The position numbers and the translations under genes were made by a program. The notes below the pieces were generated by a model that was not told where the DNA came from, searched no databases, and saw nothing but the letters and a program-made list of their open reading frames with translations. Shown piece by piece: positions 307 through 19,388 of a stretch of 20,000 bases of DNA; within the stretch, counting starts at the first letter, position 1, and every line of letters begins with the position of its first letter. This DNA comes from an uncultured virus (IMG/VR IMGVR_UViG_3300028416_000010) (Duplodnaviria > Heunggongvirae > Uroviricota > Caudoviricetes), in IMG/VR virus record IMGVR_UViG_3300028416_000010, one strand, 5' to 3'.

Positions 307-380
307 TATACAATAATTCGCTTATATTTTCCGAAAAGTTTATGATTAATTTTCGGAAAATAATCAACTTTTATTGTATG
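307..380. repeat. 74-bp dyad, copy 1
   Basis: TATACAATAA-N10-TTTTCCGAAAA-N12-TTTTCGGAAAA-N10-TTATTGTATG. Confidence 0.95.
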
Positions 381-459
381 TATTATTTTGAAAATGTTGA
401 GCTTGATTCATTCTTCGAGGAGCTGAGATGGTAAATTTTCTTTAGAAAAAACTACAAAC

Positions 460-486
460 AAAAAAAGCAACCCTTTCGAGTTGCTT
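460..486 (-). terminator. Intrinsic terminator
   Basis: GCAAC/GTTGC hairpin plus U-run. Confidence 0.8.
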
Positions 487-511
487 AAATATCACATATA
501 AAAACTTTTAA

Positions 512-709
512 TTAACTTATTTCCACATGTTCTTCAATTATAGAATTATAAGTTTCTAAACTACTTTCATCTAAAATTGTTTTACCACCTAATTCTATTT
601 TTTTATTCAACAAAGATAATGAAAAATCTCTTATTTTTTTATCTTCTATTTTTAAATTTCCTTGTATTTCTAAAACTTTATCTAACGCTTGATTGATTGT
701 TGTTTTCAT
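512..709 (-). CDS. Hypothetical protein, 65 aa
   Basis: ATG with A-rich leader; ends just before terminator. Confidence 0.8.
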   Translation of the reverse strand: MKTTINQALDKVLEIQGNLKIEDKKIRDFSLSLLNKKIELGGKTILDESSLETYNSIIEEHVEIS

Positions 710-745
710 GTTTTTGTTTTTATAATAAATATTTAAAATTTTAAT

Positions 746-916
746 TTATGCTCCTATGCTATCAAGATAATCTTTAATATACTCCTTTTCTATATTAGAA
801 AGTCTTTCTTTTTCTATAAAGAACAACTCTTTCATTTCAAGACACTTTTCATCATTGCCATTTCTTAATTCTTCTTCGGCATCCAACCATAAATCAATTA
901 ATGTTTCTTTAGTCAT
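746..916 (-). CDS. Small acidic hypothetical protein, 56 aa (MTKETLIDLWLDAEEE...)
   Basis: Hand-translated; first ATG after promoter 934..975. Confidence 0.8.
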   Translation of the reverse strand: MTKETLIDLWLDAEEELRNGNDEKCLEMKELFFIEKERLSNIEKEYIKDYLDSIGA

Positions 917-933
917 TGTTTTAAATTTTAAAT

Positions 934-975
934 GTTATAGTATAATATAGTAATAATATTTTAATTTAATCAAAA
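934..975 (-). promoter_or_regulatory. Conserved module promoter
   Basis: Same motif, upstream of ATG at 916. Confidence 0.8.
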
Positions 976-1269
976 TTATTGAAAATCTAAAATAATTTTT
1001 CCTTCAAACATTTCTAAATTTTCTTCATTACTTATTTCACATAAATGATTACTAAAAAATTTCTTTCCTTCTTCTGTTAAATTATACCAATTTAAAACTC
1101 TTGGAATTATAGAAGATGCAGGTTTTAAAAATCCTAAATGTTTAATGACCTTAACCTCACTTGGTAGTGCTAACAATAAAAGTTTTGTATCTAAATCTCC
1201 ATTATTTAAAGCATTTAATCTTCTGTGAATTTCAGTTAAAACTCTTCTTTCTGATTTTTTAAATTTCAT
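976..1269 (-). CDS. Hypothetical protein, possible winged-helix DNA-binding fold, 97 aa
   Basis: LGFL...WYNLTEEGKKFF resembles the wHTH YxLTxxG motif. Confidence 0.75.
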   Translation of the reverse strand: MKFKKSERRVLTEIHRRLNALNNGDLDTKLLLLALPSEVKVIKHLGFLKPASSIIPRVLNWYNLTEEGKKFFSNHLCEISNEENLEMFEGKIILDFQ

Positions 1270-1276
1270 AATTTAA

Positions 1277-1504
1277 TTATTTAATTGTTCCGTATTCTCT
1301 CAATTCTTCTGTTAAATCTTGAATGACTTTTTGTTGTTGCTTTATTAATTCAACACATCTTAAAATCTCTTCTTTTGTGGGGTTATTACCAAAATAATAT
1401 AATCTTTCTATATCTGTTGCTCTTTTTAATAATTCTCTATTATTAGTTAATATTCTACCTGTGTTTAAATAAAACTCTTCTCTATTTATTATTATATTGC
1501 TCAT
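1277..1504 (-). CDS. Hypothetical protein with C-terminal coiled coil, 75 aa
   Basis: ORF after promoter. Confidence 0.8.
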   Translation of the reverse strand: MSNIIINREEFYLNTGRILTNNRELLKRATDIERLYYFGNNPTKEEILRCVELIKQQQKVIQDLTEELREYGTIK

Positions 1505-1512
1505 GCCTATTT

Positions 1513-1554
1513 TAATTTATATAATATAGTAATAATATTTTAATCTAATCAAAA
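1513..1554 (-). promoter_or_regulatory. Conserved module promoter
   Basis: Same motif, upstream of ATG at 1504. Confidence 0.8.
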
Positions 1555-1556
1555 AA

Positions 1557-2111
1557 CTATAAACTTTTTAACATTCTTAAACCTCTTCTAATTTTTTCTT
1601 CTGAATATTCCCATTCTTTATAGAAATTATTATTTTCAAATTCTTTATAGAAAAAAGAAACAATATCTTTATATTGATTAACTAATTCAATTTCCTCAAT
1701 ACTTTTCCAACCACAATCTCCATTTTTGCTACTTGTTACTCCTGCAACATTAACATCATGAATAGTGTAATTAGTCACTTCACTGAAACGTTTTTTATTT
1801 TTCCCAATAGAATAATAAGATTTTCCTTTTTTATGATAAAGAGAAAATGAAATATTTATTGTATCATTAACATTAATAAAAGGTTTTAACACTTTGTTTC
1901 TCATTAATTTATCATAAACATTTCTATCTGTTCCAAAATGGATTGATAAATAATCTTCTCTACAAACAACTTCTAATCTACTTTCAGTTAAATCAATAGC
2001 CATGTTTGCATGTACTACCCCATTTACTGCTGTTAAATCATCTCCATTTAACCAACGTACTCCGTAAGTTTTTAACTCACTTAAAATAGAATTTATTATT
2101 TTTTCTGTCAT
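1557..2111 (-). CDS. Hypothetical protein, 184 aa (start moved to MTEKIINS)
   Basis: ORF-track start lies inside the promoter; ATG at 2111 fits the leader spacing. Confidence 0.85.
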   Translation of the reverse strand: MTEKIINSILSELKTYGVRWLNGDDLTAVNGVVHANMAIDLTESRLEVVCREDYLSIHFGTDRNVYDKLMRNKVLKPFINVNDTINISFSLYHKKGKSYYSIGKNKKRFSEVTNYTIHDVNVAGVTSSKNGDCGWKSIEEIELVNQYKDIVSFFYKEFENNNFYKEWEYSEEKIRRGLRMLKSL

Positions 2112-2123
2112 AATGTTTGTTTT

Positions 2124-2165
2124 GTTATAGTATAGTATAGTAAACAATTATTAAAGTAATCAAAA
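2124..2165 (-). promoter_or_regulatory. Conserved module promoter
   Basis: Same motif, upstream of ATG at 2111. Confidence 0.8.
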
Positions 2166-2303
2166 AATGTATAAGTTTTTTTGTTTTTTTGCTGGGGGGA
2201 CTTTTAAGTGTGTATATTTTTTGTGTGTAATATGAATGTGCTGCTGCAGCCGTAAAAATGTAGCTGCAGCTTTTTGCTGTGGGGGGAAATTTAGATTTGT
2301 AGG

Positions 2304-2377
2304 TATACAATAATTTTTTATTATTTTCCGAAAAGTTTCTATTTATTTTTCTGAAAATAATTACTTTTTTTTGTATA
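2304..2377. repeat. 74-bp dyad, copy 2
   Basis: Same geometry; right inner box TTTTCTGAAAA. Confidence 0.95.
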
Positions 2378-2451
2378 CATATCATTCAAAAAACCTCTCC
2401 CTTCATACAGGAACATATACAGGAACATGTAGGAATAAAATATAAAACAAA

Positions 2452-3111: not shown

Positions 3112-3153
3112 CATTTGATATAATATAGTAACAATATTTTAGGTTAATCAAAA
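3112..3153 (-). promoter_or_regulatory. Conserved module promoter
   Basis: Same motif, upstream of ATG at 3101. Confidence 0.8.
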
Positions 3154-3646: not shown

Positions 3647-3688
3647 TATATAATATAATATAGTAAAATTATTTCAATATAATCAAAA
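3647..3688 (-). promoter_or_regulatory. Conserved module promoter
   Basis: Same motif with tandem ATTAT repeats, upstream of ATG at 3622. Confidence 0.8.
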
Positions 3689-3818
3689 AGTTTGTGGTTT
3701 TTATTTTTCCTGGGGGAGATTTTTGAAGTGTATAATTTATATGTATGATGGGCCTTTTGATACAGGGACAATAATGCAGCTGCAGGATTTGCTGTGGGGG
3801 CTGATTTGGGTTGGGGGG

Positions 3819-3892
3819 TATACAATAATATTAGATTATTTTCCGAAAAGTTTTTATTTATTTTTCGGAAAATATATTTTTTTTATTGTATA
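3819..3892. repeat. 74-bp dyad, copy 3
   Basis: Same four boxes and spacing. Confidence 0.95.
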
Positions 3893-3984
3893 TCTATCAT
3901 TTAAAAAACCTCTCTCCCTCCAGAAGACGCTAGTCGCATTAACAACAAAAAAGTTATAGATACAAAAAACTAACCTCCCAGAAA

Positions 3985-4017
3985 CAAAAAACCCCGCCTT
4001 ATAAAAGACGAGGTTTC
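3985..4017 (-). terminator. Intrinsic terminator
   Basis: GC-rich hairpin plus U-run. Confidence 0.75.
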
Positions 4018-4036
4018 TATTCTTATTATTTTAATT

Positions 4037-4273
4037 TTAAATTATTAGAATTTCTTTTTCAGGTTCACCCATTTCAATTGTATGTTCAGGATATACTTCA
4101 ATTAAAGCATTTACTAAATCATCATTATCATAATTCTCTCCCCCATTTCTTTCTTCAAGTATAATAGGCTCAATTACTTTCTTAATTTTTTCATTAGTTA
4201 AATTAGTCATTAAGAATAAATCTTCTTCTGCAAAAGACGTTGTTGAAATAACTACAAGTCTTAAATCTTCCAT
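4037..4273 (-). CDS. Small acidic hypothetical protein, 78 aa
   Basis: ORF before terminator. Confidence 0.85.
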   Translation of the reverse strand: MEDLRLVVISTTSFAEEDLFLMTNLTNEKIKKVIEPIILEERNGGENYDNDDLVNALIEVYPEHTIEMGEPEKEILII

Positions 4274-4278
4274 AATGT

Positions 4279-5121
4279 TTAAATATATAAAGTTACACGT
4301 TCATTGATTTCTTTAATTTCATATTCTCTGTTTGGATATTTACTTTCAAATTTATTGACAATTTTTTTAGCTTCATTTTTTGTTGCATATTTTAATTGTG
4401 GACTATAAAAAGAATACATATAACCTCTACTAGTATGTTTTGATAAATATCTCCCTTCAACTAATATAGTATAGTATTTATCTAAATCAACTCTTAACTT
4501 TTCTTTCTTAGCCTTAGAAAAGTATTCCTTTCTTAACCTTTTAGGTTTATCTTCGGGCATATAACCAAACTCAACCGTTGCCTGTATTGGTGTACCCTTG
4601 AATAATTCATTACATTCATTAATTGCATCAATTAATTCTTGTCCACTTGTAACACTCTTACTGAAAGGTTCAATACCATATTCTCTTCTAGTTTTATCAC
4701 TATAATAAGTGTTTTTAACTATTATAGTTACATGTTCCAAATTTAATTGCTCAATCGTTAGTGCTTTGCTACAACCTGTTTTAAATATACCTTCAAATTG
4801 TCCGTATGTAGTATTCCTTGTACTACCATTGATAGCAATACTACTCCAATATCCAAATGATTTATCATCATATTCCTCAAACCATTTATCTTTTTCTCTT
4901 TCATTGTTTCTATTGATAATATCTTGTCTTACTGACTTTGTATATTCAATCATTTCATCAAGTGTTAATACAACACTTTCATTGATATTGTACGCCCACC
5001 AACTTCTTGCACGTTTATTATTATAATCATAACAATTATTACTACCTGTTAATATCATTGGTACAAATTTATCTTCTGACACTTTAATAAATTGTTTATC
5101 GTAAATAATTTCATAAGACAT
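4279..5121 (-). CDS. Hypothetical protein, 280 aa (largest in window)
   Basis: Long ORF after promoter; no motif recognised. Confidence 0.92.
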   Translation of the reverse strand: MSYEIIYDKQFIKVSEDKFVPMILTGSNNCYDYNNKRARSWWAYNINESVVLTLDEMIEYTKSVRQDIINRNNEREKDKWFEEYDDKSFGYWSSIAINGSTRNTTYGQFEGIFKTGCSKALTIEQLNLEHVTIIVKNTYYSDKTRREYGIEPFSKSVTSGQELIDAINECNELFKGTPIQATVEFGYMPEDKPKRLRKEYFSKAKKEKLRVDLDKYYTILVEGRYLSKHTSRGYMYSFYSPQLKYATKNEAKKIVNKFESKYPNREYEIKEINERVTLYI

Positions 5122-5138
5122 AATATAAATATTTTTAA

Positions 5139-5180
5139 GTTACAATATAATATAGTAAACAAATATCAAACTAATCAAAA
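5139..5180 (-). promoter_or_regulatory. Conserved module promoter
   Basis: TTTTGATTAGTTTGATATTTGTTTACTATATTATATTGTAAC. Confidence 0.85.
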
Positions 5181-5234
5181 ATTGATAAACTTTTTTTGAA
5201 GAATATTTCTGAACCTGGGGGGATTATTTGTAGT

Positions 5235-5308
5235 TATACAATAATTATCTTATATTTTCCGAAAATTTTATACTTATTTTTCGGAAAATAATCCTTTTTT
5301 ATTGTATA
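5235..5308. repeat. 74-bp dyad, copy 4
   Basis: Same four boxes and spacing. Confidence 0.95.
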
Positions 5309-5401
5309 TATTACTTTAGAAATGTTGAGCTTGGATTAACCTTCCAGCGTCTGGTATGGTAAATCTTATACACAATTATCACAAAACCACCCCCCAGAAA
5401 C

Positions 5402-5429
5402 AAAAAAAACAACCCTTTCGAGTTGCTTT
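5402..5429 (-). terminator. Intrinsic terminator
   Basis: Same family as 460..486. Confidence 0.75.
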
Positions 5430-5456
5430 ACTTATATTATTATGTCTAATCAATTA

Positions 5457-5834
5457 TTATTCATATACTATATGAATAGGTTCATCAATAAAGATATCTC
5501 CCCCATTACATTTTCCCCAACCTTGTTCAGGGTCTATTTTGCTTTTTGTAGTTGGTATTGTTCCGTTAAAATATTTCTCTAACACAACTGCAACACCATT
5601 ACTTTCATTTTCTTCAAATATTAAATCACAAACCTCTCCCCAAGGCATTTTCCATTCAAAACTATCTCCTCTACTATTAGGATTAAACACACGTCCATAA
5701 GAATCATAATGTCCTCTCATTTCCTCAATCACTTTACCATTTTTTAACAGATACATTCTTACTGCATCTCCATCAAATGAACTGCTAGCAACTGCCTTAT
5801 TACTTTCTTTACAAATAAAACTAAAACAACCCAT
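5457..5834 (-). CDS. Hypothetical phage-type protein, 125 aa
   Basis: MGxFS...YDSYG pattern recalled from uncharacterised phage proteins. Confidence 0.88.
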   Translation of the reverse strand: MGCFSFICKESNKAVASSSFDGDAVRMYLLKNGKVIEEMRGHYDSYGRVFNPNSRGDSFEWKMPWGEVCDLIFEENESNGVAVVLEKYFNGTIPTTKSKIDPEQGWGKCNGGDIFIDEPIHIVYE

Positions 5835-5858
5835 AAACTTTTTTTAAATTAAATTATT

Positions 5859-6086
5859 TTATAAATGTCCACCATCATTGTTTGTGGAGTCTTGATATTC
5901 ATATATAGTATCATAACCACTTAATGAATCTTCTGCTAAAGCATTTTCTAAAAGTGTGTCAATATGTTTACTTTCCATTAAAAAATTTTGCAATTCTTCT
6001 CCTACAATATTTTCATCAACTTCAACTTCGATAGTTGCTTGTTTAGAATAATGTCTTTCTATTGTTACTAAAACTTTTCTTGTCAT
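5859..6086 (-). CDS. Small acidic hypothetical protein, 75 aa
   Basis: ORF in operon. Confidence 0.85.
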   Translation of the reverse strand: MTRKVLVTIERHYSKQATIEVEVDENIVGEELQNFLMESKHIDTLLENALAEDSLSGYDTIYEYQDSTNNDGGHL

Positions 6087-6103
6087 ATTATTTTTTTTAT
6101 TAT

Positions 6104-6268
6104 TTATAAATTATTTTCCCCGTATGGTGCCTCATTATAACTTTGGTAGTTGCAAGTCTTACATAAGTCTTGGTCATCGTCAACATCAAAGTCCATTTCT
6201 TCTCTAGGAAAATGTTCATGGCAGCTATTGCATATAAATAGTGGCTCATCTTCTGATAAATTTTTCAT
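6104..6268 (-). CDS. Small acidic zinc-finger-like protein, 54 aa (start moved to MKNLSED)
   Basis: CNSC...CKTC pairs. Confidence 0.8.
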   Translation of the reverse strand: MKNLSEDEPLFICNSCHEHFPREEMDFDVDDDQDLCKTCNYQSYNEAPYGENNL

Positions 6269-6269
6269 G

Positions 6270-6389
6270 TTATTTTTGTTTTGAATTATTAACTGAATTA
6301 TTAATCTTTGATTTTTTAACTTCACTATGAATGAAATTTATCCAATCATTAAAGTTAAAAATAGGTTTCTTCGGTAAAATAGTTTTCAT
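6270..6389 (-). CDS. Small hypothetical protein, 39 aa (MKTILPKKPIFNFNDWINFIH...)
   Basis: First ATG after promoter; stop abuts the next start. Confidence 0.65.
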   Translation of the reverse strand: MKTILPKKPIFNFNDWINFIHSEVKKSKINNSVNNSKQK

Positions 6390-6403
6390 ATTATTTAATT
6401 TTT

Positions 6404-6445
6404 GTTACACATTAATATAGTAATAATTTTTCAAACTAATCAAAA
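6404..6445 (-). promoter_or_regulatory. Conserved module promoter
   Basis: Same motif, upstream of ATG at 6389. Confidence 0.8.
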
Positions 6446-6499
6446 AAATAAAAACTTTTTTTGAAGAATATTTCTGAACCTGGGGGGATTATTTGTAGT

Positions 6500-6573
6500 T
6501 ATACAATAATTATCTTATATTTTCCGAAAATTTTACACTTATTTTTCGGAAAATAATTGAATTTTGTTGTATA
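6500..6573. repeat. 74-bp dyad, copy 5
   Basis: Same geometry; flanks nearly identical to copy 4. Confidence 0.95.
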
Positions 6574-6652: not shown

Positions 6653-6683
6653 AAAAAAAAGACAACCATTTCTAGTTGTCTTT
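6653..6683 (-). terminator. Intrinsic terminator
   Basis: GACAAC/GTTGTC hairpin plus U-run. Confidence 0.8.
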
Positions 6684-6763
6684 ATATAAATTAATTTTGA
6701 AATTTGTATTTTTTTACTAAAAATACTTATATAATTTTCTCATTTTAAGATACTTACAAAAAG

Positions 6764-6786
6764 GTGTTGATATATACTAGTTATAG
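6764..6786 (+). mobile_element. Possible attC half-site
   Basis: TATATAC-TA-GTTATAG overlapping the stop codon of 6781..6996; no left arm found. Confidence 0.35.
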
Positions 6787-6996
6787 GGCATTTAGCGTTC
6801 TTTGGTTGCAAAGGTGAGGTATTCCACGTTTACAAGTTAAGTAAGCACCCCATTCATCAATTTTAGTTAATTCGCCTTTTACCTCTACACCATCGGTAAT
6901 TCCACAAGTACCCACAGCGGAATAAAAACGCCCTATAACAACGTGTATAAAACCATTGCTATAAGTGCGTATATCAAATTCTTTCTGTTTTTTCAT
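6781..6996 (-). CDS. Hypothetical protein, 71 aa, starting inside an attC-like site
   Basis: ORF; visibly more GC-rich than neighbours; stop within a TAAC core. Confidence 0.75.
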   Translation of the reverse strand: MKKQKEFDIRTYSNGFIHVVIGRFYSAVGTCGITDGVEVKGELTKIDEWGAYLTCKRGIPHLCNQRTLNAL

Positions 6997-7054
6997 CTTT
7001 ATGTCTTTTAATTAAGTTCAGTAAAAGCAACGGTTCATACACAAAACGTTATAA
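6933..7054 (+). mobile_element. Integron attC-like site
   Basis: CTATAAC-AAC-GTGTATAAAAACCATTGC ... GCAACGGTTCATACAC-AAAAC-GTTATAA: AAC/GTT cores with imperfect complementary arms. Confidence 0.7.
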
Positions 7055-7065
7055 AACATTAAACT

Positions 7066-7365
7066 TCACCCCCATATAAAACCAATGTCAACCGAAAACT
7101 TTACATCCAATATGTAATCATTTGTTTCGAGAAACTTTTTATTTTTACCTTCTTTTGATATGCTGTATAAAATTACTCTATCTGGAACATCTTTTTTAGA
7201 ACATTCATTGTTGTCCTTTTGATGTTTAGAGTATTTTCTAACATATTCAAAAACACTACCCTTCTTGCTTTCTGTCCAAGGACTATAGTGAAATTCTCCT
7301 TTTACAATATCTTCTTTAAGTACACATGTACCTTTCATTTTAAATTTATTATTTAATTTTTCCAT
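7066..7365 (-). CDS. Hypothetical protein, 99 aa (start moved to MEKLNNK)
   Basis: Lies between two attC-like sites. Confidence 0.75.
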   Translation of the reverse strand: MEKLNNKFKMKGTCVLKEDIVKGEFHYSPWTESKKGSVFEYVRKYSKHQKDNNECSKKDVPDRVILYSISKEGKNKKFLETNDYILDVKFSVDIGFIWG

Positions 7366-7376
7366 AATAAAACGTT

Positions 7377-7437
7377 TTATAACAATGTATATAATTAACT
7401 CCACTTTGTTCCGCAAATCATATACGGAACGTTATGG
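7377..7437 (+). mobile_element. Integron attC-like site
   Basis: TTATAAC-AAT-GTATATA ... CATATAC-GGAAC-GTTATGG. Confidence 0.7.
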
Positions 7438-7441
7438 ACCA

Positions 7442-7558
7442 TTATTCGTAAAAAAATTCTGTATCATATAATGATTTTAATTGTTTACTTGTCAATTTAT
7501 TTAAGTATACATCATCATACCCTCTTTCATTCCATAATCTGTACTTTAAACTTTCCAT
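7442..7558 (-). CDS. Small hypothetical protein, 38 aa (MESLKYRLWNERGYDD...)
   Basis: Hand-translated; between two attC-like sites. Confidence 0.65.
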   Translation of the reverse strand: MESLKYRLWNERGYDDVYLNKLTSKQLKSLYDTEFFYE

Positions 7559-7583
7559 TGTTATTTAGTTTTAAATTAACGGT

Positions 7584-7642
7584 GCATAAAACCATATAAA
7601 ATTCATTTCGTTCCTCAACGCTTCATATACAAATCGTTATAA
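7584..7642 (+). mobile_element. Degenerate attC-like site
   Basis: Right arm CATATAC-AAATC-GTTATAA intact; left core GCATAAA (AAC lost). Confidence 0.5.
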
Positions 7643-7677
7643 TACAATATAGTAAACAAATATCAAACTAATCAAAA
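7636..7677 (-). promoter_or_regulatory. Conserved module promoter
   Basis: Same motif; its TAAC end is shared with an attC-like core. Confidence 0.8.
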
Positions 7678-7750
7678 ATTGATAAACTTTTTTGAAAAAG
7701 ATTTTTGGCTCCTGGGGAGGGATTTTTGTATAGTAGGCTTGTTTTATATT

Positions 7751-7824
7751 TATACAATATTTTATCCATATTTTCCGAAAATTTTCTATTTATTTTTCTG
7801 AAAATAATCACTTTTTATTGTATA
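7751..7824. repeat. 74-bp dyad, copy 6
   Basis: Same geometry. Confidence 0.95.
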
Positions 7825-11723: not shown

Positions 11724-11764
11724 AACCTTTTGTTTTTGAAGTTAAAGTGATACGTTTCTCGCAT

Positions 11765-11806: not shown

Positions 11807-11847
11807 AACAATCAAAAAAAATGAAAAAATATTTTCAAAGGAATTTT

Positions 11848-11883
11848 TGAACATATCCCCCCATAGGGGGGGGTATATGTTCA
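11848..11883. repeat. GC-rich palindrome/hairpin
   Basis: TGAACATATCCCCCC-ATA-GGGGGGGGTATATGTTCA. Confidence 0.85.
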
Positions 11884-11910
11884 CTTGGAAAACGAATACT
11901 GAAAATAAGT

Positions 11911-11999
11911 TATACAAAAATAAATCTGTATTTTCCGAATTTTTGATAACAAGAATAAATTAATTATTTTTTCGGAAAATAATCTAAAAATATTGTATA
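11911..11999. repeat. 89-bp dyad variant, copy 10
   Basis: Four boxes with 27-nt central spacer; lies between divergent promoters. Confidence 0.9.
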
Positions 12000-12112
12000 C
12001 CTTAATAGTTTTGTTTTTGTGGAACCAGCATCTGACCTGGTCATCACCAGGAAATCTTACCCCCAAAACAACCTCCCTCCCAGCAAAAAAAATACAAAAA
12101 TATTCACTCAAT

Positions 12113-12154
12113 TTTTGATTACTTTAAAAACACTTTACTATATTATGGTGTAAC
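12113..12154 (+). promoter_or_regulatory. Conserved module promoter, opposite orientation
   Basis: TTTTGATTACTTTAAAAACACTTTACTATATTATGGTGTAAC upstream of ATG at 12170. Confidence 0.85.
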
Positions 12155-12169
12155 TTAAAAACATTTATT

Positions 12170-12493
12170 ATGAAAAGCACTAATGAAATCTTGAACGAAA
12201 TTACTACTAAAGGACAAATTTTAACTTTCTTTTATAGTGTAGGTCCAAATGCAACTAAAGAACAAAACTACTTTGCAGATAACAATAAATTATTTCTTGC
12301 AGAAACGGTTTATGACAATCAATTTAAAGAAGATTTAAAAAAACCAATTTTAAAACCTATATCAAAAACAAAATTATTTAAGATTATAGAAGAAAAGTCT
12401 AAAAAAGAATTTATTGACTTCACAGAGTATTTAGATTTAGAAAATTTAAAAGAAAGAATAGAAGATTATGAAAATGAATTAATGCTATTATAA
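12170..12493 (+). CDS. Hypothetical protein, 107 aa
   Basis: Own + strand promoter and terminator. Confidence 0.88.
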   Translation: MKSTNEILNEITTKGQILTFFYSVGPNATKEQNYFADNNKLFLAETVYDNQFKEDLKKPILKPISKTKLFKIIEEKSKKEFIDFTEYLDLENLKERIEDYENELMLL

Positions 12494-12527
12494 TGTTTTG
12501 AGAATAAACACAATAGTAAACTTGAAG

Positions 12528-12560
12528 AAAGACTCCTCAAAGCGAGGGGTCTTTTTTTTT
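12528..12560 (+). terminator. Intrinsic terminator
   Basis: GACTCCTC/GAGGGGTC hairpin plus T-run after 12170..12493. Confidence 0.85.
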
Positions 12561-12630
12561 GTTGTTTTTTCACAAAAGCACCCAACATAATATAAAGAAG
12601 GTTCTTATATATATTCCATCATTAAACATT

Positions 12631-12704
12631 TATACAATAATACTATTATATTTTCCGATTTTTTTACGATTATTTTTCGGAATATATTTTTAAATTATTG
12701 TATA
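12631..12704. repeat. 74-bp dyad, copy 11 (degenerate inner boxes)
   Basis: TTTTCCGATTT / TTTTCGGAATA, spacing conserved; between convergent genes. Confidence 0.88.
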
Positions 12705-12757
12705 TCTAATAATTTAATTAAAAAGAAAAAATCCATCTCACGGCTGCTTAAGATGGA

Positions 12758-13051
12758 TTACATATTTTCTCTGTGTTCAGATTTAACTTTACTAATATTT
12801 GACTTAGTGTTTATTGTGAAAGTTTTAATGTTTTTCTGGGGGCATATTAACATTTGCATAATACATATATAAAATTTTTCTGCATTTTCCATACAAGTTG
12901 AAACTTTTTTGTTTAGCATTAAAGATTTGATATTGTATTTTTTTTGAATGTGTTCATAAAAACTTAAACCCTCAAAATTTTTACCACTCCCATATTCTTT
13001 TGTCCAATTAGAAAATTCTGAATTAAGGTTTTGTTGGTCAATTTTATGCAT
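12758..13051 (-). CDS. Hypothetical protein, 97 aa
   Basis: ORF; lacks the consensus module promoter and terminator. Confidence 0.65.
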   Translation of the reverse strand: MHKIDQQNLNSEFSNWTKEYGSGKNFEGLSFYEHIQKKYNIKSLMLNKKVSTCMENAEKFYICIMQMLICPQKNIKTFTINTKSNISKVKSEHRENM

Positions 13052-13087
13052 GTGAATAATTTAGTAGAACTATATAATAAATAGTAT

Positions 13088-13125
13088 AAAAAAAAGAGCA
13101 ACCAATGATTGCTCTCCTTTTTTTA
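13088..13125. terminator. Intrinsic terminator, possibly bidirectional
   Basis: GAGCAA/TTGCTC hairpin with A-run and T-run. Confidence 0.75.
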
Positions 13126-13164
13126 TTAAACCACTAAATCTATTGTTATGAAAAAACCACAGAT
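13088..13164 (-). ncRNA. Candidate ~75 nt sRNA
   Basis: Complete Bacteroidota-type promoter at 13169..13199 followed closely by a hairpin and U-run. Confidence 0.5.
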
Positions 13165-13565: not shown

Positions 13566-13622
13566 ATAATGTAAATCCACTGGAGGTACAGTGAAGGGCT
13601 GGGGGGGTTATTAATTTATAAT

Positions 13623-13696
13623 TATACAATAATAAAACGATATTTTCCGAAAAGTTTCTATTTATTTTTCGGAAAATAATTGACTTTTATTGTATA
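13623..13696. repeat. 74-bp dyad, copy 12
   Basis: Same geometry. Confidence 0.95.
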
Positions 13697-13785
13697 TCTT
13701 AATTTTAGATTTTGGTTGAGCCACGGTTCACCAGGATTCACCCAGGAAATCTTACCCCCAAACAAAACCTCTCCCCAGCAAAAAC

Positions 13786-13817
13786 AAAAAAAGCACACCT
13801 ATAAAAAGGTATGCTTT
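13786..13817 (-). terminator. Intrinsic terminator
   Basis: GCACACCT/AGGTATGC hairpin plus U-run. Confidence 0.8.
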
Positions 13818-13849
13818 CTGTAACAAAAAAAACAATTAATATGTGAAAA

Positions 13850-14447: not shown

Positions 14448-14462
14448 AATAAATCATTTTAA

Positions 14463-14504
14463 GTTACATTATAGTATAGTAAAATTATTCCAAACTAATC
14501 AAAA
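14463..14504 (-). promoter_or_regulatory. Conserved module promoter
   Basis: Same motif, upstream of ATG at 14447. Confidence 0.8.
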
Positions 14505-14578
14505 GTTAAACGACTTTTTTCTGAAGAAGATTTCTGGACGCTGGAAGGTTGTCTGGGGGTGGATTTGTGTTTTATAGT

Positions 14579-14652
14579 TATACAATAATAAGACGATATT
14601 TTCCGAAAAGTTTCTATTTATTTTTCTGAAAATAATTACTTTCTATTGTATA
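14579..14652. repeat. 74-bp dyad, copy 13
   Basis: Same geometry. Confidence 0.95.
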
Positions 14653-14729: not shown

Positions 14730-14761
14730 AAAAAAAAGAGCAACCCTTTCGAACTGCTCTT
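14730..14761 (-). terminator. Intrinsic terminator
   Basis: GAGCA/TGCTC hairpin plus U-run. Confidence 0.78.
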
Positions 14762-15100: not shown

Positions 15101-15114
15101 AATATTGTTTTTAA

Positions 15115-15156
15115 GTTACACTATAATATAGTAAACAAATATCGAACTAATCAAAA
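15115..15156 (-). promoter_or_regulatory. Conserved module promoter
   Basis: Same motif, upstream of ATG at 15100. Confidence 0.85.
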
Positions 15157-15271
15157 AAGTATAAGTTTTTTGCTGGGGGGGTTATTCTTTAATAAGTTTT
15201 GACAGCAAGATTATTTCCTGATAACCTGAAGAAGCGAAGGAACAGCAAACATATTAATATTCAATTTAATG

Positions 15272-15345
15272 TATACAATAATAATATTTTATTTTCCGAA
15301 AAGTTTCTATTTATTTTTCTGAAAATAATTACTTTTTTTTGTATA
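15272..15345. repeat. 74-bp dyad, copy 14
   Basis: Same geometry. Confidence 0.95.
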
Positions 15346-15418
15346 CATATCATTCAAAAAACCTCTCCCTTCATACAGGAACATGCAGGAACATGTAGGA
15401 ATAAAATATAAAACAAAT

Positions 15419-15448
15419 AAAAAAAGGCAACCATTTCTGATTGCCTTT
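15419..15448 (-). terminator. Intrinsic terminator
   Basis: Copy of 11110..11140. Confidence 0.8.
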
Positions 15449-15471
15449 CGTGTAACTAAAACTAACTATTA

Positions 15472-16032
15472 TTAACCCAAAATTATTGTATCTCCATTCA
15501 CTTTTATTCTATCAATATTAGAAATTATATAAGTTCTATATTTGCTTGACTTCATTTGTTTTCTTATGTCGTCTTTAGCCATTGTTTTTGCTCTCTTATT
15601 TGTTGGTGGATGTTCTCCTTCAACTAAAACAGTTTTTCTCACTTCTTTAGCAAAGATATGAATTTGCTCTTTTTCAATGTTGTATTTAACATTTTTTGAA
15701 ATACTAACGTAAGCATTTTTTTGACCATTTGAGCGATTAGCGTGTTGCTCTTTATCTAATTTGTTTGCTGTGTTATCATCAATACCTAATGATAATTTAA
15801 TAGATTTTAACAATTCAGCTTGAGCTGTAATAAAAGTCGCTTTATCGTACTTTTCATTTTCTACATATTCAACATTTGGAATAATATCTAAATCTTTTCT
15901 CAAAGCGTTTTCGTAAATCGTGTTGATTTGAATTAAACGACTTGCCTCTTCCCCAAACTTATTTGTGTAAGTGAAAGATACGAATTTTGCTCCTTTTGTT
16001 TCATTTAACGCATTTACTAATTCTTGTAACAT
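15472..16032 (-). CDS. 186-aa protein, copy B
   Basis: 181/186 identical to copy A. Confidence 0.9.
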   Translation of the reverse strand: MLQELVNALNETKGAKFVSFTYTNKFGEEASRLIQINTIYENALRKDLDIIPNVEYVENEKYDKATFITAQAELLKSIKLSLGIDDNTANKLDKEQHANRSNGQKNAYVSISKNVKYNIEKEQIHIFAKEVRKTVLVEGEHPPTNKRAKTMAKDDIRKQMKSSKYRTYIISNIDRIKVNGDTIILG

Positions 16033-16073
16033 AACCTTTTGTTTTTGAAGTTAAAATGATACGTTTCTCGCAT

Positions 16074-16115
16074 CATCTACAACAATATAGTAAACAGATT
16101 TCAAACTAATCAAAA
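16074..16115 (-). promoter_or_regulatory. Conserved module promoter
   Basis: Same motif, upstream of 186-aa gene B. Confidence 0.8.
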
Positions 16116-16156
16116 AACAATCAAAAAAAATGAAAAAATATTTTCAAAGGCATTTT

Positions 16157-16192
16157 TGAACATACACCCCCCTATGGGGGGGTGTATGTTCA
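16157..16192. repeat. GC-rich hairpin with perfect 16-bp arms
   Basis: TGAACATACACCCCCC-TATG-GGGGGGTGTATGTTCA. Confidence 0.9.
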
Positions 16193-16219
16193 TTTAGAAA
16201 TTGAATACTGAAAAAAAGA

Positions 16220-16308
16220 TATACAATAATCAATTTATATTTTCCGAATTTTTTATAATAAAAATAAATTAATTATTTTTTCGGAAAATAATCTAAAAAT
16301 ATTGTATA
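16220..16308. repeat. 89-bp dyad variant, copy 15
   Basis: 27-nt central spacer; paralogue of copy 10. Confidence 0.9.
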
Positions 16309-16418
16309 ACTTAAATGTTTTGTTTTTGTGGAACCACCATCTCACCAGGTTTTCACCAGGAAACTTCAACTCAAATAAAATCCCCTCCCAGCAAAAAATA
16401 CAAAAATATTCACTCAAT

Positions 16419-16460
16419 TTTTGATTTATTTGAAAATATTTTACTATATTATAGTGTAAC
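16419..16460 (+). promoter_or_regulatory. Conserved module promoter, opposite orientation
   Basis: Same motif, upstream of ATG at 16479. Confidence 0.85.
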
Positions 16461-16478
16461 TTAAAAACAACAAACACT

Positions 16479-16748: not shown

Positions 16749-16775
16749 TCACACGTATCAGCAACGTGAACTTGA

Positions 16776-16808
16776 AAGAAACCTCTCATTAATTTGAGGG
16801 GTTTTTTT
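16776..16808 (+). terminator. Intrinsic terminator
   Basis: ACCTCTCA/TGAGGGGT hairpin plus T-run after 16479..16748. Confidence 0.85.
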
Positions 16809-16878: not shown

Positions 16879-16952
16879 TATACAATAACAAAACAATATT
16901 TTCCGAAAACTTTATTATTATTTTTCGGAAAATAAATAAATTTTATTGTATA
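16879..16952. repeat. 74-bp dyad, copy 16
   Basis: Same geometry. Confidence 0.95.
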
Positions 16953-17030: not shown

Positions 17031-17063
17031 AAAAAAAGGGAAACATTTTAAAAATGTCTCCCT
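17031..17063 (-). terminator. Intrinsic terminator
   Basis: GGGAAACATTTT/AAAATGTCTCCC hairpin plus U-run. Confidence 0.8.
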
Positions 17064-17091
17064 CTTAATTATAACAAATGAACAATACTAA

Positions 17092-17286: not shown

Positions 17287-17300
17287 ATGTTTTATTTTTA

Positions 17301-17342
17301 AGTTACACTAAATATAGTAAAACAATTTCAGTATAATCAAAA
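17301..17342 (-). promoter_or_regulatory. Conserved module promoter
   Basis: Same motif, upstream of ATG at 17286. Confidence 0.8.
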
Positions 17343-17428
17343 GAATGGTAAATTTTTTTGAGGAGGAAGGGAAGATGAAGTTGCAGCTTCCGTGTTATGG
17401 ACAGTGCGTAAAATTTATAAATTATAGA

Positions 17429-17502
17429 TATACAATAATTTGCTTATATTTTCCGAAAAGTTTATGATTGTTTTTCGGAAAATAATCCTTTTTTATTGTA
17501 TA
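17429..17502. repeat. 74-bp dyad, copy 17
   Basis: Same geometry. Confidence 0.95.
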
Positions 17503-17582: not shown

Positions 17583-17611
17583 AAAAAAAAGCAACCCTTT
17601 CGAGTTGCTTT
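17583..17611 (-). terminator. Intrinsic terminator
   Basis: Same family as 460..486. Confidence 0.8.
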
Positions 17612-17731: not shown

Positions 17732-17748
17732 AGTATAAATATTTTTAA

Positions 17749-17790
17749 GTTACACTATAATATAGTAAACAACTTTCAAACTAATCAAAA
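17749..17790 (-). promoter_or_regulatory. Conserved module promoter
   Basis: Same motif, upstream of ATG at 17731. Confidence 0.85.
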
Positions 17791-17863
17791 AAATGATGAT
17801 TTTTTTTGAAAAAGACTTTTGATTCCTGGGATGGTGTTTGGGGGTGGGTTTGTGTTTTATAGT

Positions 17864-17937
17864 TATACAATAATAAAATATTATTTTCCGAAAAGTTTTT
17901 ATTTATTTTTCTGAAAATAATCACTTTTTATTGTATA
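17864..17937. repeat. 74-bp dyad, copy 18
   Basis: Same geometry. Confidence 0.95.
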
Positions 17938-18015
17938 TATTATTTGAAAGTGTTGAGCTTGAGTCATCCTTCCAGGAACTGAGATGGTAAATCTTCTTTA
18001 CAAAAAACTACAAAC

Positions 18016-18043
18016 AAAAAAAGCAACCCTTTCGAGTTGCTTT
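18016..18043 (-). terminator. Intrinsic terminator
   Basis: Same family as 460..486. Confidence 0.8.
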
Positions 18044-18066
18044 ATTATTAATAATTTAAATTAATA

Positions 18067-18453
18067 TTAAAAACAAAATTCTAATTCTCCATTTTCATCA
18101 ACACAAATATTTAATGCTTGAAAATCATTTATGTTTCCATTTTCATCAATTGTGTAATTTGCAATTACAGAAGTTGTTTTTAACCATATTGGATTTTTTG
18201 CTTCGTCACTTAAGTAATAAGCTATAAAAGTATATTTATTATTTTCAACTTTAAATAAACAAAAGTTTGAAAATTCTTCTCTTATTTCTTTTCTATCAAC
18301 ATTTTCAAGATAATTTTTAGTTGGATAACAAAATAAACCCTCTCCTTTTAAAATATTTAATTTATTTAACATTTCCCAGTCTTCTTTTGTAAGTCTAGTA
18401 ACGTTATTAATCATTTCTTCTTTTAAATTTTTAAGTTCATTTTTTAATTTCAT
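18067..18453 (-). CDS. Hypothetical protein, 128 aa
   Basis: Sole gene of its module. Confidence 0.88.
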   Translation of the reverse strand: MKLKNELKNLKEEMINNVTRLTKEDWEMLNKLNILKGEGLFCYPTKNYLENVDRKEIREEFSNFCLFKVENNKYTFIAYYLSDEAKNPIWLKTTSVIANYTIDENGNINDFQALNICVDENGELEFCF

Positions 18454-18468
18454 AATGTTTGTTTTTAA

Positions 18469-18510
18469 GTTACACTATAATATAGTAAACAAATATAAAA
18501 CTAATCAAAA
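18469..18510 (-). promoter_or_regulatory. Conserved module promoter
   Basis: Same motif, upstream of ATG at 18453. Confidence 0.85.
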
Positions 18511-18592
18511 GAATGATAAAATTTTTCCTAAAGAAGAATCAGACTCTTGGATGCTCAGATGGAAGCTGGAGGTGATGTTCGTTATTTGTAGT

Positions 18593-18666
18593 TATACAAT
18601 AATAAAGCAACATTTTCCGAAAAGTTTCTATTTATTTTTCGGAAAATAATCCTTTTTTATTGTATA
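18593..18666. repeat. 74-bp dyad, copy 19
   Basis: Same geometry. Confidence 0.95.
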
Positions 18667-18745
18667 TATTACTTTAAAAATGTTGAGCTTGGATTAACCT
18701 TCCAGGAACTGAGATGGTAATTCTTCTTCAGAAAAAACTACAAAC

Positions 18746-18775
18746 AAAAAAAAGACAACCATTTCTGATTGTCTC
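18746..18775 (-). terminator. Intrinsic terminator
   Basis: Same family as 9716..9746. Confidence 0.78.
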
Positions 18776-18798
18776 TCATTTCTTAATCTGAACCTATG

Positions 18799-18963
18799 TT
18801 AATTAAGACTAAATTGTAACTTATGCTTTATTTTTCTTGAATACCCATTAACACTTTTTATTCTTTTTTCTTCACTTGAAGATTCTACTCTTCTTCTTTG
18901 TCTTTTTTGTCTAATCACTTCTTTATCTAAAAGTATAGATGATTCTAATAAATTCATTTCCAT
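18799..18963 (-). CDS. Small basic protein, 54 aa, with ArfA-like YxRKxKH motif
   Basis: Hand-translated MEMNLLESSILLDKEVIRQKRQRRRVESSSEEKRIKSVNGYSRKIKHKLQFSLN. Confidence 0.72.
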   Translation of the reverse strand: MEMNLLESSILLDKEVIRQKRQRRRVESSSEEKRIKSVNGYSRKIKHKLQFSLN

Positions 18964-18977
18964 ATAATATTTTTTAT

Positions 18978-19160
18978 TTAATTCAAACTTGCCATTTTTA
19001 ACTCTCTTTGTTTATCCCATAACACTTTAAGTTTAATCGCTTTTTCTAAATTTTCAAAAGACACCTCTTTCTTTTTAATACCATTGCTATAAAAAAACTC
19101 CCTCTCTAAAGCACTTAACTCTTTACTCTCCCTATTTGTTAATGAATAAAACATAATCAA
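18978..19160 (-). CDS. Hypothetical protein, ~58-60 aa
   Basis: ORF after promoter; start uncertain. Confidence 0.75.
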   Translation of the reverse strand: MIMFYSLTNRESKELSALEREFFYSNGIKKKEVSFENLEKAIKLKVLWDKQRELKMASLN

Positions 19161-19173
19161 ACTTTTTTAATTA

Positions 19174-19215
19174 ATTATACAATAATATAGTAAACACATT
19201 TCAAACTAATCAAAA
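19174..19215 (-). promoter_or_regulatory. Conserved module promoter
   Basis: Same motif, upstream of 18978..19160. Confidence 0.8.
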
Positions 19216-19314
19216 GAGTAGTAGTTTTTTTTGAGGGGGGCAATAGATGGATTTAAAGAACGCCAGTTCCAGCAGCTTCCTTCTGGACGGTACATAAAAA
19301 TTACAAATTATAGA

Positions 19315-19388
19315 TATACAATAATTTACTTATATTTTCCGAAAATTTTATATTTATTTTTCGGAAAATAATTACTTTTTGTTGTATA
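19315..19388. repeat. 74-bp dyad, copy 20
   Basis: Same geometry. Confidence 0.95.

Follow-up and report, generated by a model that had tools for sequence, protein, structure and literature searches.

The stretch of 20,000 nucleotides analysed here (the window) comes from an uncultured tailed virus, IMG/VR record IMGVR_UViG_3300028416_000010, and carries about 40 small genes in about 20 autonomous transcription units, at the boundaries of which stand 20 copies of an inverted repeat of mostly 74 bp, referred to as the dyad. The explanation that best fits the whole is a joint one and is probably correct: the genes form an array like those organised by PeSLs, the terminator/promoter repeats of T4-type phages, and are shuffled by homology, and the dyad is a punctuation mark of the transcription units that is read by a protein. 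We have good confidence that the array is a PeSL-like hyperplastic region. Such behaviour is already known from PeSLs; the dyad itself is the undescribed part. The source is an uncultured marine phage, and the window its hyperplastic small-gene region, probably early or accessory.

The dyads were located with a repeat finder, which returned families of 15–18 copies overlapping on one core, and then by four conserved boxes. Eighteen are 74 bp long and two 89 bp, and they start 435–1997 bp apart. The string TATACAA-N15-TTCNGAA, with at most one mismatch allowed, matches 40 times and these matches form 20 inverted pairs, against a mean of 0.14 half-sites expected by chance; none of 200 dinucleotide-preserving shuffles reached 40. 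The first-pass annotation of the window had listed 20 dyads with this spacing, and the same coordinates were recovered here. It had also placed nearly all of them in the gap between the terminator of one module and the promoter of the next. This arrangement was found for 15 of the 20, which stand in tandem with a promoter motif 51–136 bp away (387 bp for the dyad at 10954) on one side and a terminator stem 76–112 bp away on the other. The remaining ones lie between divergent promoters (both 89-bp copies) or between convergent terminators (three copies), and it is the transcription-unit boundary that is common to all 20. Because 21 of the 22 terminators adjoin a dyad, and the five promoter motifs that have no dyad are also all without a terminator, the dyad marks the boundaries of transcription units and not promoters as such.

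The dyad is the best-kept part of a repeated non-coding spacer of about 300 bp, which self-BLAST detects as blocks of 180–340 bp with 76–90% identity that extend from promoter to terminator. In the direction of the genes, the spacer consists of a stop codon, an intrinsic terminator, block A of about 80 bp, the dyad, block B of 50–130 bp, a promoter, about 20 A-rich nucleotides and the ATG, with 200–320 bp between terminator and promoter. The promoter motif, near-identical from one boundary to the next, is sigma70-like (TTGATT, 18 nt, TATATT, then GTGTAAC), lies about 20 nt before the ATG, and was found 23 times in a profile search of the window, 21 times on the minus strand and twice on the plus strand. 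A terminator scan gave 43 terminator-like sites where 4.4 were expected, of which 22 terminators were counted after discarding overlaps and hairpins internal to the dyads. The view that the modules are self-contained is therefore upheld by the 23 promoter motifs and 22 terminators. Blocks A and B contain GC-rich islands: the GC content reaches 50–53% at 21–50 bp outside each dyad edge (e.g. 5330–5360 and 13730–13760), against a background of 27%, and CCWGG occurs 85 times in the 90-bp flanks of the dyads where 4.0 were expected, a 21-fold excess. Short tandem or inverted motifs that differ from copy to copy make up the islands, among them CACCAGGA, CAGGATG, ACAGGAAC and GACGGGCT. The bases that directly adjoin the outer box of the dyad on its outer side are conserved as nCTTA. 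The islands change rapidly in sequence (79% identity), but their composition and position are retained.

When 60 distinct 74-mers were aligned, 21 columns were invariant and 25 nearly so. The conserved columns form the outer boxes TATACAATAA and TTATTGTATA and two inner boxes around TTC-N-GAA, a core that is palindromic by itself with a free centre. Each half-site is composed of one core and one outer TTGTATA box, and the two half-sites of a dyad face outward, back to back. In a non-redundant set of relatives comprising 27 sequences, the dyad profile gave 104 matches, 97 of them with both outer arms; 73 of these two-armed dyads measure 74 bp, 13 measure 75 bp, four 76 bp and seven 88–89 bp. 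Of the 97, 95 could be scored, and in every one of these 25 nt separate the centre of each core from its outer end; the distance between cores is 23 bp in 73, 24 bp in 13, 25 bp in four and 37–38 bp in five, all variation in length being central. Since the offset from core to end is fixed and only the distance between cores varies, the dyad consists of two rigid half-units at a free distance. It follows from the 25-nt offset that core and outer box are about 22 bp apart, centre to centre, which is the geometry of a −35/−10 pair, or of a site with two contacts on the same helix face.

The two halves are kept by sequence and not by pairing. Between close relatives, the boxes of the dyad are 96.7% identical, more than terminators (93.9%), coding DNA (92.1%), promoter motifs (91.1%), blocks A and B (79.1%) and the spacers within the dyad (75.6%). 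The intervening segments are neither related nor complementary to each other, columns 11–18 and 57–64 pairing in only 5–28 of the 60 copies. Covariation scored 0.027, compared with 0.058 in shuffles, all 500 of which were as high; column pairs 8/67, 10/65, 22/53 and 26/49 show 9, 8, 20 and 14 broken pairs, respectively, and not one two-sided change. Because the boxes are conserved in sequence and compensatory changes are absent, a protein most likely recognises the dyad as duplex DNA. A half-site matrix applied to the related loci found 206 half-sites, ten of them unpartnered. Three of the ten are cut by contig ends. The five internal solo half-sites (L024:6135, L036:3633 and L037:6573, which are one position in three loci, and L040:1529 and L040:3229) have retained the half directed towards the downstream promoter and gene, and their inner box directly abuts the T-run of an ordinary terminator. 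The solo at L031:871, which is the product of a deletion, faces a convergent gene, and L033:5643 is a weak match to the half-site.

Several identities were considered for the boxes and set aside. The promoter of Bacteroidetes, with its −33/−7 elements TTTG ... TAnnTTTG, does not fit the outer box by eye. The inner box resembles the Firmicute CodY box, an identity that was dropped because no gene has a Shine-Dalgarno sequence and the nearest cultured relatives of the capsid are Flavobacterium phages. A general promoter class is also disfavoured for the half-site, given that the matrix found only the two halves of the one dyad in a 232-kb relative (G001, described below). The possibility of a host operator was rejected as well, because the 61 loci with inner-box pairs in bacteria are unrelated hairpins from many phyla; the search covered 185,579 bacterial and archaeal species, each represented by a single genome, and gave no convincing dyad, with one locus passing a loose outer-arm test. 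No Rfam family reaches its gathering score in the window, a literature search by box strings listed no paper on phages, and neither it nor a search for comparable elements of Flavobacterium or T4-like phages gave a description of the dyad among the papers listed. The repeat, which the first-pass annotation had not recognised as a described element, thus matches neither an Rfam family nor a bacterial genome. The best Rfam match, a weak one to the Bacteroidetes small RNA family FopS, lies at 13085–13160 on the minus strand (34.3 bits against a gathering score of 56, E 0.084), overlaps the only terminator without a dyad and is possibly a small RNA gene.

The genes between the dyads are mostly unrelated to one another, as had been proposed, with one paralogous pair among the 39 open reading frames (ORFs) of the window. 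The GC content is 24–30%, and nearly all plausible genes in the ORF list are small and on the minus strand. Eleven of the 39 ORFs match PHROG families, nearly all of unknown function; two Pfam matches exceed the cut-off, Kyano_Gp96 and DUF1737, and the product of gene 8025–8363 belongs to Pfam family PF23790. No DNA-binding family was matched by the window ORFs in the PHROG and Pfam scans, and the window has no tRNA genes. A megablast search with the whole window and a tblastn search with a 280-aa protein found no match in 50,697 phage records, and protein-based locus searches of viral contigs with the 280-aa and a 186-aa protein as queries returned no relatives. None of 40 gene starts is preceded by a Shine-Dalgarno sequence. 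The leaders are A-rich and about 20 nt long, often with AAAACAAAG or ATT directly 5′ of the ATG. The lack of Shine-Dalgarno sequences, the Flavobacterium-phage relatives of the capsid and the weak FopS-like match lead us to propose that the host is probably a member of the Bacteroidota.

The units of the array change their order between relatives. Nine gene families are common to the window and to distant relatives, following one another as F13, F12, F11, F2, F3, F2, F1, F10, F9 in the window and as F11, F2, F1, F10, F3, F13, F9, F2, F12 in a relative. The homologue of gene 16479 has kept its place next to the gene of the 186-aa protein, and the order of the 186-aa gene, 10584 and 8025 is also kept, and homologues of 12758, 18978, 512 and 17092 are placed elsewhere. 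L037 differs in order from L023 and L024 both by whole units and by single genes. Four breakpoints were mapped against close relatives with 86–100% identity. L018 matches the window with 100% identity as far as 1554, where a promoter motif has its upstream edge; beyond it a shorter, different gene replaces 1557–2111, and similarity returns at the next promoter motif. L022 has 284 additional bases with a 90-aa ORF, the junction lying inside promoter motif 3117–3153. L030 diverges at 6782, at the stop codon that precedes a 129-nt element. In L031, the segment 12568–12672 is missing, from the T-run of a terminator to the centre of the dyad at 12631, which leaves half a dyad behind, with TTTTT on both sides of the junction. 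Two of the four breakpoints are therefore in promoter motifs without a dyad, one at a gene stop and one at a dyad centre.

Rearranged forms also occur in seawater populations. Four sequencing runs were mapped, all as assembled contigs and with short-sided joints ignored. In DNA run X11, a contig of 2225 nt (depth 25) consists of 6481–5372, 51 other letters, 11049–10950, 38 other letters and 7678–7635, and a second contig joins 6633 to 11108. Among 24 of the 249 loose contig ends there seems to be an excess near dyads, to which no weight is given here. Taken together with the 1.2-kb duplication described below, the relatives and the seawater populations confirm that units are gained, lost, duplicated and reordered, and the order of modules is not identical among the window, L023 plus L024, and L037. 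The further proposal that exchange takes place at the dyad by means of a dedicated system was not borne out, since one of four breakpoints falls at a dyad centre, the T-runs provide microhomology, the hairpin shows no covariation and no recombinase was found. As the first-pass annotation had remarked, none is visible in the window: no tyrosine or serine recombinase was detected among its 39 ORFs in the PHROG and Pfam scans, in G001 or among 43 ORFs of related loci. A co-occurring recombinase, which that annotation had suggested looking for, was likewise not found in the window or in G001, the latter having neither PF00589 nor PF00239.

The cassettes of T4-type phages that carry PeSLs were reportedly treated by Arbiol in 2010. 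PeSLs (promoter-early stem-loops) are described as repeats that combine a terminator with a promoter and lie in hyperplastic regions of T4-like phages, where degraded 'half' elements also occur, and PmSLs (promoter-middle stem-loops) are a version of PeSLs with a middle promoter (Comeau 2014, PMC4122927). Modular shuffling mediated by PeSLs has thus already been described for T4-type phages, and exchange in these regions has been explained, in the passages of that source considered here, by homologous recombination in the repeats, with mini-circles formed between tandem cassettes (PMC4122927). As far as these passages go, the window shares with PeSL regions the terminator and promoter repeats between small and mostly ORFan genes, the indels, replacements and displacements between close relatives, and the 'half' elements. 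The likeness extends to the presence of a TTGATT-N18-TATATT promoter and a terminator at each boundary, and to junctions in repeats (the promoter motifs of L018 and L022, and the T-run and dyad of L031). However, the stem-loop of a PeSL, as described there, stands just upstream of the promoter and a Shine-Dalgarno sequence follows, whereas here terminator and promoter are 200–320 bp apart and there is no Shine-Dalgarno sequence. Between them lies a 74-bp dyad of four boxes with GC islands, and no such element is described for PeSLs in the same passages. With respect to placement among T4-type phages, the window contains only small genes, and G001, which has a capsid protein of the T4 superfamily as well as a sheath, a baseplate wedge and a portal, shares with it only non-coding DNA.

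The array also resembles an integron, in that unrelated small genes are delimited by an imperfect inverted repeat with two pairs of boxes, a bubble and a variable centre, as in attC sites. Nevertheless, the dyad has no RYYYAAC/GTTRRRY, its outer boxes being TATACAATAA and TTATTGTATA and its cores TTC-N-GAA; there is no integrase and no attI, and the units have their own promoters and terminators (23 and 22 in 20 kb), whereas integron cassettes are mostly promoterless. Unlike attC, the dyad is conserved in sequence and not in structure, and breakpoints also fall outside it. It differs from CRISPR in that the intervals of 435–1997 bp contain whole genes and not spacers of 25–50 bp. The first-pass annotation had excluded both CRISPR and a classical integron, and the whole-gene intervals and the lack of GTTRRRY and of an integrase agree with this.

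Extragenic palindromes of the REP/BIME type occur near terminators between operons, as inverted pairs with a variable linker, and the dyad is alike in this respect. It differs in its absence from the 185,579 bacterial and archaeal species searched, in far more conserved boxes and in a rigid geometry; no gene of the RAYT type was seen among the window ORFs in the Pfam scan. In the host-takeover module of Bacillus phage SPO1, and likewise in the early regions of phages T4 and T5, small early genes are densely packed into many short operons that each have a terminator and a strong promoter, much like the window, and no repeated dyad is known at the boundaries of these early operons. The stoperators of mycobacteriophages L5 and D29 are bound by the repressor gp71 and block transcription in a polar manner. 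They have been described as operator-like sites that are dispersed through the genome and resemble a −35 element, one of them being a putative promoter (PMC12266134). To the extent covered by that description, the dyad resembles them as a short site present in many copies in intergenic gaps, conserved in sequence and dependent on orientation, with the same ambiguity between operator and promoter. Stoperators are, by contrast, single asymmetric sites of 13 bp for the repressor of a temperate phage, whereas the dyad is a pair of outward-facing 35-bp units with two boxes each, in what is probably a lytic T4-like phage.

The only long relative, G001, was found by an inner-box scan of viral contigs. 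It is a contig of 232,514 bp from a jumbo myovirus of the T4 superfamily, with genes for sheath, baseplate wedge, portal, capsid, terminase, a split DNA polymerase and ribonucleotide reductase. Its capsid protein falls in the T4 superfamily and has its best cultured match in a Flavobacterium phage (34% identity). The sole true dyad is at the very start of the contig, and L019, which prolongs this end by 6.3 kb, has no dyad beyond the one; with this single copy in 232 kb, the dyad is restricted to regions of the kind that the window represents. Neither homologues of the window proteins nor the window promoter motif are present in G001. Positions 1–129 of G001 are 89.9% identical to window positions 6782–6654, that is, to a 3′ non-coding element with its terminator, which may be a mobile 3′ untranslated region or a 3′-derived small RNA. 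Position 6782 is at once the breakpoint in L030, the site of an X11 joint and the point that corresponds to the end of the G001 contig.

One scan identified 29 related loci in metagenomes, with GC contents of 22–33%. The dyad profile found 12–13 copies in L023 and L024, ten in L036, six in L037 and five at the start of L044–L046. L024, of a family with 31% GC, has the same architecture and the same promoter motif as the window. In L029 and L033 the dyads precede larger genes, and the standard promoter motif always lies between. The window itself was found in 14 DNA runs from seawater (0.81–0.96 of sampled words) and in six RNA runs (0.34–0.63). RNA-library contigs of two studies cover 3985/4068–5114/5127 and 5503/5702–6378/6390, and in one study also 6753–7624. 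They run from near the terminators to near the promoter motifs, the two studies stopping within 13 nt of each other, whereas DNA contigs (3889–5161, 5289–6481) do reach the dyads. This gives a weak hint, based on contigs, that blocks A and B and the dyads are untranscribed or barely transcribed; RNA libraries may also contain DNA, and missing RNA cover alone proves nothing.

According to the explanation that we favour, the spacers would give unrelated genes common flanks, as the regulatory cassettes of PeSLs do. Homologous or microhomology recombination in the promoter motif, the T-run of the terminator or the dyad would then insert, delete, replace, duplicate and reorder units, and no dedicated recombinase would be needed. 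The dyad would provide two independent, outward-facing half-sites on which a protein docks as duplex DNA. The half-sites could form a back-to-back pair of factor-dependent promoters, either middle-mode-like or dependent on a phage sigma factor, comparable to the middle promoters of T4 that lie upstream of early ones and to PmSLs. They could equally be an operator or roadblock, by analogy with the stoperators of L5 and D29, that insulates units or shuts them off. We consider the odds between the two to be about even. It is possible, although doubtful, that the dyad is a new kind of punctuation mark, a pair of polar docking units ('bidirectional stoperator' or factor-dependent promoter pair) through which a phage protein would silence some 20 early units together or change them over to a later mode, and that the GC islands and the recombination-prone centre make the units exchangeable cassettes.

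Several observations weigh against this explanation. As single-stranded DNA the dyad folds at −11.5 to −14.9 kcal/mol, with z scores of −5.5 to −5.7 for three 74-nt copies and −2.6 for the 89-nt form, and may therefore form a cruciform. The dyad centre recurs as a breakpoint, in L031, in a loose end at 5270 in run X15 and in the solo half-sites, so that the dyad may have a role in recombination. One RNA-library contig, 12590–13056, spans the dyad at 12631. No dyad-binding protein was found, and the 186-aa protein, the best-conserved one of the array, has no match in Pfam, in PDB sequences or in fold. The link to T4-like phages rests on the non-coding DNA shared with G001 and on the PF23790 assignment of gene 8025–8363. 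The promoter pair, in particular, has to contend with a half-site matrix that finds nothing else in the 232 kb of G001, with a standard promoter motif that always lies between dyad and gene, the dyad never being the sole promoter, and with one half that would fire antisense; RNA contigs also stop short of the flanks, a weak point since only contigs are concerned. The roadblock, for its part, would stand 76–112 bp from terminators that are already strong, and the two dyads between divergent promoters would block nothing.

The recurrence of breakpoints at the dyad centre is shared by two other explanations. In one, which is unlikely, an AT-rich palindrome clamped by GC islands extrudes cruciforms or hairpins during replication, these are cut by a phage nuclease of the SbcCD/gp46-47 or endonuclease VII type, and the breaks feed recombination and recombination-dependent replication, thereby driving the shuffling. 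The folding energies and the GC islands on both sides of the dyad are in its favour, as is an SbcC-like protein (phrog_77) encoded by G001. It leaves unexplained the near-invariant boxes, the palindromic cores and the strict distance from core to end with a free centre, and it does not agree with the tolerance of broken pairs without compensation or with the solo halves, incapable of forming a hairpin, that are kept in three lineages. In the other, which we regard as rather more improbable, the dyad serves a dedicated integron-like system as its recombination site, and a recombinase encoded elsewhere in the phage excises, inserts and reorders units. The dyad is indeed found at every unit boundary regardless of orientation, its two pairs of boxes with an unpaired 8-nt bubble and a loop resemble a folded attC, the 1.2-kb duplication begins 6 bp from a dyad edge, unit order varies between relatives, and the breakpoints of L031, the solo half-sites and the X15 contig fall at dyad centres. 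But three of the four breakpoints that were mapped are elsewhere, two in promoter motifs without a dyad and one at a gene stop, and the fourth has the TTTTT microhomology with a terminator T-run that fits illegitimate recombination. Sequence conservation of the boxes without compensatory change is the opposite of what is seen in attC, and a spacing of the halves that varies (23–25 or 37–38 bp) would be unusual in a crossover core. The dyad lacks a GTTRRRY core, G001 has neither PF00589 nor PF00239, and a recombinase family was matched neither in the window nor among the 43 ORFs of related loci.

Hairpin formation might instead matter in RNA, where the dyad in a read-through transcript would be a processing site of the RNase III type, a back-up bidirectional terminator or an antitermination signal. 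Sites of the RNase III type lie between the early genes of T7, a hairpin with two stems and an internal loop is the kind that RNase III cuts, five dyads were flagged as terminator-like on the plus strand in the terminator scan, and an RNA-library contig spans one dyad. This is a little less credible again, given the lack of compensatory change in 60 distinct copies, the dyads between divergent promoters, where no transcript is expected, the strong terminator that precedes the dyad in the sense direction, and the solo halves that are unable to fold; the RNA-library contigs listed also end before the other dyads, which DNA contigs reach, a weak argument. The least probable of the explanations considered is that the dyad and its symmetric surroundings of about 170 bp are a strong site for a phage type II topoisomerase or for host gyrase, or an origin-like unwinding element. 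The sites of gyrase in BIME/REP elements and the strong gyrase site of Mu are the natural comparison, and the symmetric order of GC island, AT stretch, dyad, AT stretch and GC island, the position of the dyads between strongly transcribed units and the fact that blocks A and B keep composition and not sequence (79.1% identity) would suit such a role. The single copy in a 232-kb relative and a cumulative GC skew that falls steadily across the window, with no switch, argue against it, and we know of no such enzyme that needs invariant boxes of 10 bp. The joint explanation, a PeSL-like array shuffled by homology with the dyad as protein-read punctuation, is the one that we retain. The coordinates of the features are collected in Table 1.

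Table 1. Dyads, boundary elements and repeated segments of the window (positions on the 20,000-nt stretch)
Feature	Position	Strand	Remarks
Dyad 1, 74 bp	307–380		tandem
Dyad 2, 74 bp	2304–2377		tandem
Dyad 3, 74 bp	3819–3892		tandem
Dyad 4, 74 bp	5235–5308		tandem
Dyad 5, 74 bp	6500–6573		tandem
Dyad 6, 74 bp	7751–7824		tandem
Dyad 7, 74 bp	8472–8545		tandem
Dyad 8, 74 bp	9564–9637		tandem
Dyad 9, 74 bp	10954–11027		tandem; left edge of 1.2-kb duplication
Dyad 10, 89-bp form, cores 38 bp apart	11911–11999		divergent promoters
Dyad 11, 74 bp	12631–12704		convergent terminators; left half deleted in L031
Dyad 12, 74 bp	13623–13696		convergent
Dyad 13, 74 bp	14579–14652		tandem
Dyad 14, 74 bp	15272–15345		tandem; left edge of duplication copy 2
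Dyad 15, 89-bp form	16220–16308		divergent promoters
Dyad 16, 74 bp	16879–16952		convergent
Dyad 17, 74 bp	17429–17502		tandem
Dyad 18, 74 bp	17864–17937		tandem
Dyad 19, 74 bp	18593–18666		tandem
Dyad 20, 74 bp	19315–19388		tandem
Promoter motif, example	5136–5183	−	ATG at 5121
Promoter motifs	126–170, 932–975, 1519–1556, 2121–2168, 3117–3153, 3649–3690, 5136–5183, 6401–6447, 7634–7680, 8338–8384, 9443–9488	−	
Promoter motifs (rest)	10528–10566, 11769–11807, 14460–14506, 15112–15159, 16078–16116, 17299–17345, 17746–17792, 18466–18513, 19172–19218, 19757–19801	−	
Promoter motifs	12111–12157, 16417–16463	+	
Intrinsic terminator, example	5406–5429	−	
Terminators	465–486, 2454–2485, 3987–4018, 5406–5429, 6658–6683, 7937–7968, 8652–8679, 9721–9746, 11113–11140, 12730–12759	−	
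Terminators (rest)	13088–13122, 13576–13595, 13788–13819, 14736–14761, 15422–15449, 17034–17066, 17588–17611, 18020–18043, 18750–18777, 19485–19522	−	13088–13122 without dyad
Terminators	12524–12558, 16775–16808	+	
Block A, example (terminator–dyad spacer)	5309–5405		GC-rich island 21–50 bp from dyad edge
Block B, example (dyad–promoter spacer)	5184–5234		GC-rich island, C runs and CCWGG
3′ non-coding element with terminator, 129 nt	6654–6782	−	starts at stop codon of gene 6781–6996; also L030:1170–1267; single-copy
1.2-kb duplication, copy 1	10948–12163		92.7% identical to 15267–16469; self-BLAST
1.2-kb duplication, copy 2	15267–16469		self-BLAST

The duplication contains a dyad, the gene of the 186-aa protein, a promoter, an 89-bp dyad and a divergent promoter. 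The protein is encoded at 11163–11723 and again at 15472–16032, the two copies being 97% identical, and it occurs in 49 clusters with 46–99% identity, in marine phage contigs. Its predicted fold is confident (pLDDT 85.8). As a candidate for the protein that binds the dyad it was rejected, with no Foldseek match at E ≤ 0.001, none in VIA at Z ≥ 5, none in PDB sequences, and only low scores in Atlas (0.81–0.83). The dyad form of 88–89 bp always adjoins the 186-aa gene. In both copies of the duplication, perfect GC palindromes (C6–7, ATA, G6–8) lie between the promoter of this gene and the 89-bp dyad, at 11856–11873 and 16167–16182, and L031 and L032 have them too.

Proteins of the sigma70 family, which are candidates for the reader of the dyad, are encoded by several relatives, at L029:13393–14034 and L033:425–1030 and at two to three places in G001. 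Those of L029, L033 and G001 (57721–57930 and 58679–58888) have regions 2 and 4, and the sigma genes of L029 and L033 are in units that adjoin dyads. Beside a related array, L045 encodes a membrane protein of the Bax1-I family (1594–2223), a UvdE UV-endonuclease (9007–9915) and an AAA kinase of the PrkA type (10255–12177), unusual auxiliary genes for a phage. Viral contigs L002 and L003 (31–33% GC) have a pair of inner boxes 21 bp apart without outer boxes. Hairpins that resemble the inner box (TTTTCCGAAAA, a loop and TTTTCGGAAAA) occur at what seems to be one conserved locus in several Flavobacterium species (L053, L093, L102, L105–L107), and others in a lineage of metagenome-assembled genomes of Cohaesibacter (L048, L056, L063, L084), where the repeat is flanked by its own inverted arms. 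Both are unrelated to the phage dyad.

The phage is common in seawater, and related arrays were found at 29 metagenome loci. Its accessory region acts as a natural machine that shuffles dozens of unknown genes, probably for host takeover or anti-defence. The array carries the idea of PeSLs beyond enterobacterial and vibrio T4-like phages to marine ones that are distantly related and lack Shine-Dalgarno sequences. The dyad surpasses the surrounding proteins in conservation and has a rigid two-box geometry, and its reader would show how such phages insulate, time or silence a whole set of early units. It would also yield a compact regulatory part, defined by orientation, for hosts of the Bacteroidota type.

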